A DNA stretch of 11,957 nt, taken from UHGV virus genome UHGV-0339357; one strand, written 5' to 3'. The translations under genes and the position numbers were made by a program. The stretch is from a virus. Positions within the stretch are counted from its first letter, which is position 1. Every line of letters begins with the position of its first letter. The notes below the pieces were generated by a model. It was not told the DNA's origin, searched no databases, and was given only the letters and a program-made list of their open reading frames with translations. Shown piece after piece: positions 2,607 through 11,744 of this stretch.

Positions 2607-2636
2607 ATTATAACACAGCATAAGGGACTTGTAAAC
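2607..2636 (-). promoter_or_regulatory. Candidate T4-type early (sigma70) promoter upstream of alc
   Basis: Minus strand reads GTTTAC - 18 nt - TATAAT (with TGTG immediately upstream of the -10), the T4 early promoter pattern; lies in the rnlA-alc gap. Confidence 0.5.
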
Positions 2637-2639
2637 AGC

Positions 2640-4227
<1,588 letters not shown>

Positions 4228-9164: not shown

Positions 9165-10189
<1,025 letters not shown>

Positions 10190-10193
<4 letters not shown>

Positions 10194-10549
10194 ATTACCT
10201 CCCACTGAAAGGGGCCAGAAGCAAATCCGCTATCTTTAATCATTTTAACTAAAGTTACCATTCCTCTGTTAACTGCTTGTGCGATTTCATCAAAAACTTC
10301 ATCACTATCATCGTAAAGGTCATTAAAAAGTTCTAATACATTCTTCTGAACTTTTAATTTACAGCCAACAAATTCGCCTACAGTAAATTCGTTTCCGCCA
10401 AATCCAGCGTAAAATGTAATTACACCTGTTAACTGTCTTTCACTAGAACATAGGTCGTGTGATAAATTAATATAAGCCGTCCCAGGTGCAGTTTTAAGTT
10501 GGCAACGAATACTTACTCGAGCAATTCCAGCTACACGAATGTCAGACAT
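10190..10549 (-). CDS. Hypothetical protein, 119 aa
   Basis: ATG start at 10549 preceded by a GAGGAAAA Shine-Dalgarno; the upstream ORF stop lies inside this SD region; uninterrupted ORF. Confidence 0.55.
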
Positions 10550-10559
10550 ATTATTTTCC

Positions 10560-10802
10560 TCAAACAGACTTTTTCACAATTTTCCAATCAGCTTTAAACT
10601 GCTCGACGTCAGAATGGTAAATCCAAAATCCTGCGCTTTCTCCATCCTCATAAAGAGGGCATCCATCACATTCATCTTCCCACCCCATATCGCGTAAAAG
10701 GTGTTCAGCTTTTTCAACAAGTTCAGAATCTTTACCGATGATATTAAAATACCATTTACCTCTAACTTCTGAATCTTTGATACTCTGACGTTGTAATCTC
10801 AT
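10560..10802 (-). CDS. Hypothetical protein, 80 aa
   Basis: ATG start at 10802 preceded by an AAGGAG Shine-Dalgarno at 7-nt spacing; uninterrupted ORF. Confidence 0.55.
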   Translation of the reverse strand: MRLQRQSIKDSEVRGKWYFNIIGKDSELVEKAEHLLRDMGWEDECDGCPLYEDGESAGFWIYHSDVEQFKADWKIVKKSV

Positions 10803-10812
10803 TTTATTCTCC

Positions 10813-10881
10813 TTAGCAAGCTTTAATCAAAAGATATAAACAGACCAACATAACTGCTGCCATAATATAAGGTGCGAACAT
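10813..10881 (-). CDS. Candidate small hydrophobic peptide, 22 aa (MFAPYIMAAVMLVCLYLLIKAC)
   Basis: Not in the ORF track (too short). ATG at 10881 with a GGAG Shine-Dalgarno 8 nt upstream; single predicted transmembrane-like segment; its stop TAA is embedded in the SD of the downstream 80-aa ORF; lies just downstream of a candidate early promoter. Confidence 0.35.
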   Translation of the reverse strand: MFAPYIMAAVMLVCLYLLIKAC

Positions 10882-10911
10882 TTTCTTTTCTCCATTAGTT
10901 TTGATAGGGTA

Positions 10912-10941
10912 ATAGTATCACACTACTACCCTGATGTAAAC
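10912..10941 (-). promoter_or_regulatory. Candidate T4-type early promoter
   Basis: Minus strand reads GTTTAC - 16/17 nt - GATACTAT (imperfect -10 with TG upstream), preceded by an A/T-rich stretch; located in the gap between the 128-aa ORF and the small peptide / 80-aa ORF. Confidence 0.4.
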
Positions 10942-11327
10942 TACTTTTTGAAAGTTTTTCGCAAAAGTTCAATGATTTCATCTACATTGTTTTCGTCAAC
11001 AATGCAGTGAATTTTTGTTACGCCAGAAACCTTGTCTTTGACTTCATCCTCTTCAGAAGTCGGTTCTTTATATTCGAGGAAACAATAAAACTCTTCTTCA
11101 CTAAGTTCAAAATAATCATCACCCATACCATCATCATTATAGATTTCACCATTAGCACAAATGATTTCGGTTACATAATCAAAGCCATCTAAACTTGATA
11201 TTGATTTAACTTCAAACCAACCGCCATTTTCTTGAATGATGCCGACCATACTAGCATTTGATGAACTAATATCAATGAAAGATTTAATACGATGTGGATT
11301 TAACTCGTATTTTTTGCCGATTTCCAT
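10941..11327 (-). CDS. Hypothetical acidic protein, 128 aa
   Basis: ORF-track start at 11342 lacks a Shine-Dalgarno; the second ATG at 11327 (MEIGKKY...) is preceded by GAGGAAAA at the correct spacing. Confidence 0.55.
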   Translation of the reverse strand: MEIGKKYELNPHRIKSFIDISSSNASMVGIIQENGGWFEVKSISSLDGFDYVTEIICANGEIYNDDGMGDDYFELSEEEFYCFLEYKEPTSEEDEVKDKVSGVTKIHCIVDENNVDEIIELLRKTFKK

Positions 11328-11372
11328 TTTGATTTTCCTCATTTTAATAGGAGCTTAATAGCCCCTTGATAA

Positions 11373-11605: not shown

Positions 11606-11716
11606 ATGGCTAAAGTTGATATTGACATCGTTGATTTTGAATATATTGAAGAAATTATTAGTTGTATAGTACCATGGAAGGACAAGGATGTAAACCGTTT
11701 TATGAAAAATTTTTGA
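11606..11716 (+). CDS. Candidate small plus-strand ORF, 36 aa (MAKVDIDIVDFEYIEEIISCIVPWKDKDVNRFMKNF)
   Basis: Strong Shine-Dalgarno AAAGAGGAAA with 8-nt spacing to ATG at 11606; stop TGA at 11714-11716 abuts the GC hairpin; opposite in orientation to all neighbouring genes. Confidence 0.35.
   Translation: MAKVDIDIVDFEYIEEIISCIVPWKDKDVNRFMKNF
11666..11695 (-). promoter_or_regulatory. Candidate early promoter downstream of the gene 32 terminator
   Basis: Minus strand reads GTTTAC - 18 nt - TACTAT, preceded by an A/T-rich tract immediately after the terminator; the -10 is imperfect. Confidence 0.3.
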
Positions 11717-11744
11717 AATAAAAAAGGGGACCTCTAGGGTCCCC
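11716..11744 (-). terminator. Rho-independent terminator downstream of gene 32
   Basis: Minus strand reads GGGGACCCTAGAGGTCCCC (7-8 bp GC-rich stem, short loop) followed by TTTTTTATTT, 22 nt after the gene 32 stop codon. Confidence 0.75.

Follow-up and report, generated by a model that had tools for sequence, protein, structure and literature searches.

The promoter-early stem-loop (PeSL) was found first in RB49/phi1 (Arbiol et al. 2010, PMC2839356) and was later described in PST/T4 (Comeau et al. 2014, PMC4122927). A PeSL follows the stop codon of one small gene and precedes the Shine-Dalgarno (SD) sequence and ATG of the next. In their layout, the upstream stop codon falls within an AT-rich tract ahead of the -35 box, and in one of the two most frequent arrangements the stem overlaps the -10 box (PMC2839356). 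The published consensus for PST/T4 is TTTACW-N17-TAYWAT (PMC4122927). Here, we analyzed positions 10,813 to 10,941 of a stretch of 11,957 nucleotides from the UHGV virus genome UHGV-0339357 (the whole stretch is referred to as the window), where an earlier interpretation made from the letters alone (the sequence-only reading) had proposed an early promoter driving an unannotated 22-residue hydrophobic peptide. We consider it probable, from comparative sequence evidence, that the locus is a PeSL early promoter giving a bicistronic mRNA, and that the first cistron is a real, dispensable, and mobile gene for a single-pass membrane micro-protein.

The locus is the spacer separating the early genes frd.2 and frd.1, and its gene context agrees with that of T4. 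The 901 bases around it shared 99.8% identity with Shigella phage Sf21 (genus Tequatrovirus), positions 10790-10960 (minus strand) were 100% identical to T4, and T4 146005-146142 matched the region between frd.2 and frd.1 at 100% (T4 coordinate = window coordinate + 135202). The minus strand carries every gene in this part of the window. As in the published PeSLs, the frd.2 stop codon lies in an AT-rich tract and is followed by a consensus sigma-70-like promoter, a stem with a G-T pair over the -10 box, and the SD sequence and ATG of a small open reading frame (ORF), here GGAG-N8-ATG. The site likewise falls exactly at an insertion/deletion between close relatives, with apparent crossovers between the -10 box and the SD sequence. 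Unlike the published PeSLs, the cargo is only 22 codons long (the annotated minimum in those papers is 34 amino acids in PST and 26 in T4), one full PeSL is present with merely an SD sequence on the distal side, and the T4-type stem is not of the GGGG/CCCC type for which PeSL terminator activity was measured.

The 22-codon ORF and its stop codon (10813-10881, minus strand; T4 146083-146015) start at the ATG at 10881 and encode MFAPYIMAAVMLVCLYLLIKAC. The SD sequence GGAG (10890-10893, minus strand) is 8 nt ahead of the ATG, and the stop codon TAA (10815-10813) overlaps the frd.1 SD sequence AAGGAG (10814-10809), forming TAAGGAG (10809-10815, minus strand). All the elements of the hydrophobic 22-codon ORF behind GGAG-N8-ATG were found on the minus strand as the sequence-only reading had described them, including the stop codon embedded in the SD sequence of the next gene; GGAG itself was present but lay 18 nt past the -10 hexamer, not about 25 nt as had been stated. 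The peptide had a grand average of hydropathy (GRAVY) of 2.05 and a mean Kyte-Doolittle value of 2.38 over residues 2-19, and its hydrophobic stretch is long enough to span a bilayer. It is predicted to form a single transmembrane helix with a lone charged residue, K20, near the C-terminus. As K20 is the sole charge, the positive-inside rule would place the C-terminus probably in the cytoplasm. A lipoprotein reading was rejected, as neither a lipobox nor a positively charged N-region was present.

The distribution of the ORF was determined by tblastn of the peptide against 50,697 phage records, and database entries were sought by exact look-up. The ORF was found in 201 of these records, once in each, full length and ungapped; 594 records matched the locus, and the carriers thus make up about a third of them. 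The reading frame, whose loss among related phages had been named in advance as the outcome that would speak against the proposal, was intact in all 201 carriers. The tblastn search found a single place per genome, at this locus, and retrieved no longer homologue among the phage records. Degenerate DNA scans of IMG/VR and the JGI metagenomes returned T4-type copies only; four of the five new locus entries in these scans were contigs already found through the frd.1 scan. Neither Pfam, PHROG, nor NCBIfam gave a match to the peptide, and no match to the ORF was found in E. coli genomes and plasmids. As for annotation, ACG-C40_0237a (AFH20202.1, "hypothetical protein") was the only database entry for any variant of the peptide. 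The description of the ORF as unannotated is thus correct for Sf21, T4, T6, PST, and nearly all other records, and fails for ACG-C40.

Among the 201 copies, 131 were identical at the nucleotide level, 50 had 1-3 changes, 17 had 4-6, and three had more; at the amino acid level, 162 were identical, 35 had one change, and four had more. As 162 copies were identical in amino acids compared with 131 in nucleotides, 31 records carried silent changes only. Selection was analyzed on 13 haplotypes from three genera sharing 81-100% nucleotide identity. Compared with T4, YUEEL01 and UGKSEcP2 had four changes each, all of which were synonymous, and ESh29 had four synonymous changes and one nonsynonymous change; the Dhakavirus copies had 12-13 changes. 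The Nei-Gojobori ratio of nonsynonymous to synonymous rates (dN/dS, omega) in the frame of the ORF was 0-0.18 (Fisher p from 0.001 to 0.016), and the other two frames had no synonymous bias. Counted as minimal events, there were 12 synonymous and nine nonsynonymous substitutions (omega about 0.19; p = 2.4e-4), with a neutral expectation of 20% (0.205) for the synonymous share. The variable columns were distributed over codon positions 1, 2, and 3 as 6, 2, and 11. The proportions of synonymous (pS, 0.07-0.30) and nonsynonymous (pN, 0-0.02) differences were similar to those of the neighboring frd.1. All the replacements were conservative (A/T/V/I, M/I, L/V, V/I, and F/L) and mostly affected residues 8-13, while the ends MFAPYIM and CLYLLIK were invariant save for F2L. 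The comparison of synonymous with nonsynonymous changes among related phages, which the sequence-only reading had suggested as a check, therefore came out in favor of a gene, with a bias toward synonymous and third-position changes.

These data also bear on the explanation that the ORF is not a gene but a chance open frame in the leader or the remnant of a longer gene, its conservation resulting from ancestry, hitch-hiking, or constraint on the RNA or DNA. Most of the 201 copies were near-identical (131 of them in every nucleotide), the statistical base is small, most relatives do without the ORF, no protein family was matched, and gene callers and nearly all annotators skipped it, all of which would be expected of a chance frame. 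The clustering of changes at third positions and the synonymous bias in this frame only would not be, nor would the fact that copies from three genera and two loci, at 81-91% nucleotide identity, all retain the start codon, SD sequence, length, and stop codon. An overlapping frame in the same sequence (10827-10895, MEKRKCSH...), tried as an alternative ORF, was rejected because it was not conserved in ESh15 or MN04, and the lack of any longer homologue in the phage records argues against a remnant. We therefore regard a chance frame as an unlikely explanation and a translated micro-gene as the better one.

The presence of the ORF was variable in each of the three genera. In Tequatrovirus, T4 carries the module at the frd.2/frd.1 junction and its sisters ime09 and wV7 do not; at the same junction in Mosigvirus, ESh15 carries the ORF and PhAPEC2 does not; and at the motB/cef junction of Dhakavirus, the ORF is present in MN04, UP19, and Esco_phi_B-01 and absent from JS98. 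In all three backgrounds, the sisters of the carriers lack exactly the module. The ime09-type phages lack exactly 84 nt, and the leader CCCTATCAA joins straight to CTAAGGAGAATAAAATG of frd.1. The breakpoints fall in the shared PeSL leader and the downstream SD sequence, in agreement with the crossover zones reported for PeSL mini-circles. The TAAGGAG overlap was retained ahead of frd.1 in Tequatrovirus and Mosigvirus and ahead of cef in Dhakavirus MN04 and UP19, and an SD sequence was present in all three lineages, in the diverged leaders as GAGG-N8 (ESh15) and GGAG-N7 (MN04). Between ESh15 and T4, pS was 0.30 for the ORF and 0.66 for frd.1. The ESh15 ORF is thus nearer to that of T4 than its frd.1 is, which hints at a recent transfer.

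The conserved junction with the next gene suggests another explanation, in which the mini-ORF is translated only as a cis-acting upstream ORF, ribosomes that terminate at the TAA within TAAGGAG opening or loading the start of frd.1 or cef by translational coupling, and the peptide has no function. The stop codon of the mini-ORF overlaps the SD sequence of the next gene in all three contexts, as coupling would have it, and the T4-type mRNA is predicted to fold with codons 4-5 (CCUUA) paired to UAAGG of the frd.1 SD sequence. However, the predicted structure, at -13.5 kcal/mol for 136 nt, is weak, and a pure coupling device would not require purifying selection on the amino acid sequence (omega about 0.19). 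Moreover, the ime09-type and wV7-type phages, PhAPEC2, and Melville have the same promoter and AAGGAG or GAGGAG before frd.1 with no upstream ORF. Pure coupling consequently seems improbable to us, and a product that is itself selected is preferred.

Two further observations concern cargo at these junctions. An extra ORF of 86 amino acids resembling JS98 gp232 is located between frd.2 and the promoter in wV7 (462-722) and AR1 (378-638), and AR1 carries both this insert and the mini-ORF. In the motB-cef spacer of T4 (NC_000866, 6483-6652, minus strand), a PeSL-like promoter, TATACA-N17(TGg)-TACTAT, precedes a GGAG and an 11-codon ORF (MENSLKVLILF) that lacks annotation and is located before cef; Dhakavirus MN04 and UP19 hold the 22-codon ORF at this same junction.

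The promoter upstream of the ORF consists of the -35 hexamer TTTACA (10935-10940, minus strand; GTTTAC when the G at 10941 is counted) and an extended -10 element (10912-10920, minus strand) made up of TGa (10920-10918) and TACTAT (10917-10912), 17 bp from the -35 hexamer. The motif had been described as GTTTAC-N17; its boxes are present, but the spacer so written is N16 to GATACTAT, and the 17-bp distance holds between TTTACA and TACTAT. Transcription is predicted to start at the A at 10905 (minus strand; T4 about 146107), 7 nt past the -10 hexamer, a position inferred from standard sigma-70 spacing. An A/T-rich tract, GAAAAACTTTCAAAAAGTA (10942-10970, minus strand), is a candidate UP element that doubles as the 3' end of frd.2, and as it also encodes the C-terminus of Frd.2, its conservation is confounded.

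TTTACA-N17(TGa)-TACTAT at 10940-10912 fits the PST/T4 PeSL consensus exactly. The motif TTTACW-N14-TGN-TAYWAT matched the window three times, always on the coding (minus) strand, against an expectation of 0.01, and none of 200 shuffles reached three. A generic sigma-70 scan was not discriminating in this AT-rich window (21 sites versus 10 expected). When the motif was relaxed and applied to 1-50 kb of T4, the early strand had 10 matches and the opposite strand had one; nine of the 10 early-strand matches were between annotated genes, and one (35697) was within gene 47.

The two other exact matches in the window are separate from the locus. TTTACA-N17(TGg)-TACTAT at 11666-11694 (minus strand) is a second exact consensus promoter ahead of frd.3 without a stem-loop of its own, and the terminator hairpin of gene 32 (GGGGACC...GGTCCCC-T7, 11726-11744, minus strand) is located just upstream of it. 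TTTACA-N17(TGt)-TATAAT at 2607-2635 (minus strand) lies between the minus-strand ORFs 2640-3800 and 2071-2589 and folds weakly.

The promoter was further compared with the junctions of ime09, wV7, and F2 (Tequatrovirus), PhAPEC2 and ESh15 (Mosigvirus), Melville and S16 (Gelderlandvirus), Shinkou (Jiaodavirus), and the motB-cef junctions of JS98 and MN04 (Dhakavirus). In these five genera of Tevenvirinae, the -35 box, the 17-bp spacer, TGn, and a TAnnnT -10 box were all in register. The -35 box was TTTACA, TTTATA, or TATACA in Melville, S16, Shinkou, F2, PhAPEC2, ESh15, MN04, and JS98, and TGn and the 17-bp spacing were retained in all eight orthologous or related junctions. In wV7, which has the extra gene between frd.2 and the promoter, the promoter remains with frd.1. 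Within Tequatrovirus, the promoter and leader (59 nt) had diverged by 2-3%, compared with 18-34% at the synonymous sites of frd.1; frd.1 was usable as a divergence control throughout, and frd.2, as an ungapped control, for T6 and PYPS2T only. The spacer of PYPS2T, TTTACATAGGGTTTTAGTTGTGATACTATTACCCTAT, had eight changes that turned the stem into ATAGGGT/ACCCTAT and left the -35 box, TGn, and -10 box unaltered. The proposal of an early promoter was thus borne out by an exact PeSL consensus and by boxes that stay in register over five genera while the intervening sequence changes.

Other promoter assignments were rejected. A MotA-dependent middle promoter was rejected because the -35/-30 sequence GTTTACAT contains no TGCTT, and a review table of T4 middle promoters lists none in this interval. 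A late promoter was rejected because TATAAATA was absent from the sequence. The record of phage Lutter annotates a second "promoter" within the mini-ORF, near its 3' end (TTGATT-18-TAAAAT, 10801-10830, minus strand; 552-581 in the Lutter sequence); transcription from it would begin inside frd.1, and the match has probably arisen by chance.

A stem-loop structure (SLS; 10906-10932, minus strand), which overlaps the -10 box, was not noticed in the sequence-only reading. It is formed by an 11-nt inverted repeat with arms AGGGTAGTAG(T) and (A)CTATTACCCT at 10932-10922 and 10916-10906, which are 91% complementary. The hairpin folded at -15.2 kcal/mol (z = -3.8). For six related junctions that differ in stem sequence, the folding energies ranged from -14 to -20 kcal/mol and z ranged between -4.0 and -6.4, and hairpins of 7-13 bp were found across the compared junctions despite differing spacers and downstream flanks. 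As the hairpin sequence varies among the lineages, it is the structure that is conserved rather than the sequence. No Rfam family was matched in the region. Taken together, the comparative evidence points strongly to a functional early promoter and to a stem-loop maintained by selection.

A strong and conserved hairpin could also be read as a terminator, insulator, or recombination site closing frd.2 with no active promoter at this place, the downstream genes being read from upstream promoters such as that at 11694-11666. This second consensus promoter is 750 bp upstream, and PeSL stems have been reported as terminators (PMC2839356), both of which suit such a role. The -35 box, TGn, and -10 box, however, keep their 17-bp spacing as the hairpin changes in sequence and register, which would not be expected were the stem the sole functional part; no U-tract follows the stem, and PeSL promoters on reporter plasmids were so strong that most clones had down-mutations (PMC2839356). 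A hairpin acting in place of a promoter is very unlikely in our view, and the preferred arrangement is an active PeSL promoter with its stem-loop.

From the sequences, we infer a course of events that extends from transcription start through translation, membrane insertion, and topology to a role of the peptide in trans and a function of the hairpin. Immediately after infection, host sigma-70 RNA polymerase would start at TTTACA-N17(TGa)-TACTAT, probably at about 10905, producing an mRNA with a 24-nt leader that carries the GGAG SD sequence. The first product would be the 22-residue, nearly all-hydrophobic peptide, which would insert into the inner membrane as a single helix. Ribosomes may then initiate or re-initiate at frd.1, whose SD sequence overlaps the stop codon of the peptide. 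If the predicted start is correct, the 5' end of the transcript lies at the 3' edge of the stem-loop, and the hairpin would therefore form only in RNA reading through from frd.2. By analogy with the PeSL work, it would attenuate or insulate upstream transcription, and it may supply short homology for recombination. The module (leader, SD sequence, mini-ORF, and TAAGGAG) would be a horizontally shuffled accessory gene, gained or lost through recombination in the shared PeSL leader (CCCTATCAA...) and the downstream SD sequence.

We propose, more tentatively, that the ORF is the smallest protein-coding gene of T4, a shuffled PeSL "micro-cargo" whose peptide acts in trans on the host inner membrane and gives a host-dependent fitness benefit. 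The peptide might, for example, bind a host membrane protein or alter membrane energetics early in infection. A host-dependent benefit would explain the purifying selection, the presence in about one third of the records, and the capture at two loci in three genera. Superinfection exclusion and host membrane targeting, which had been suggested as possible roles, are speculative; the former is not supported by any homology, as none was detected between the peptide and Imm, Sp, or other families.

Several points weigh against the reading of the locus as a PeSL promoter with a selected micro-gene. Over the 66 nt, the selection signal comes from only approximately 21 substitutions, and the pairwise tests, which draw on the same data, are not independent. 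A transition bias would lift the neutral synonymous expectation above 0.205 and weaken the p-value somewhat. The Mosigvirus background is represented by one record (ESh15), which is flagged UNVERIFIED. About two thirds of the close relatives lack the ORF, and lack it precisely; the ORF is hence dispensable, and frd.1 does not need it. As the hairpin has no 3' U-tract, it is not a canonical intrinsic terminator, and terminator activity has been shown solely for the RB49-type PeSL stem (PMC2839356). The literature searched contained no usable transcript 5'-end, ribosome-profiling, or proteomic data on the ORF.

The promoter class at this locus has already been described, and the understanding of T4 transcription is unchanged. 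What is most likely new is the micro-gene, a small hydrophobic early ORF apparently borne by a PeSL. T4 is the reference genome of a very large phage group, yet T4 and about 200 related records do not list this ORF, because it is below the length limits of gene callers. If translated, it would add a membrane micro-protein to the early program of T4, no protein-coding gene of T4 would be smaller, and PeSL-mediated shuffling would reach cargo as small as 84 bp. The PeSL leaders of T4-like genomes are worth scanning for more micro-ORFs, and the motB-cef spacer of T4 has given one candidate.

The genes flanking the locus are frd.2 (10941-11342, minus strand), whose stop codon TAG (10943-10941) abuts the -35 box in agreement with the PeSL layout, and frd.1 (DUF5417; 10560-10802, minus strand, ATG at 10802), the downstream gene of the same promoter. 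An LSm-like fold was recently proposed for Frd.2, and frd.2 was the sole T4 gene of unknown function rated "Fit" in a dCas13d knock-down screen (PMC12152347, PMC11879866). Two small ORFs between frd and frd.1 (9948-10205 and 10190-10549, minus strand) are present in Sf21, PST, and T6 and absent from T4; the pair is a further insertion/deletion of the same plastic region.

Among T4 early promoters in general (Hinton 2010, PMC2988021), the promoter has the usual GTTTAC-type -35 box, TGn extended -10, and A/T-rich upstream sequence, and it is located on the early-transcribed strand directly ahead of early genes; it differs in its -10 box TACTAT, which matches TATAAT at four of six positions. The mini-ORF is similar to gp47.1, gp55.8 ("predicted membrane protein"), Imm, and Sp, which are short hydrophobic products of early, dispensable, plastic regions and are variably present. 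Unlike these proteins, with which it shares no sequence similarity, the peptide has no soluble domain, and its 22 residues are less than half the length of the smallest of them. Bacteria also have hydrophobic micro-proteins of about 20-30 residues, such as the type I toxins Ibs and ShoB and the regulators KdpF and MgtS. Although the peptide has no homology to them and no antisense RNA partner is evident, it is of similar size, is almost entirely hydrophobic, and has its single charge close to one end, as they do.

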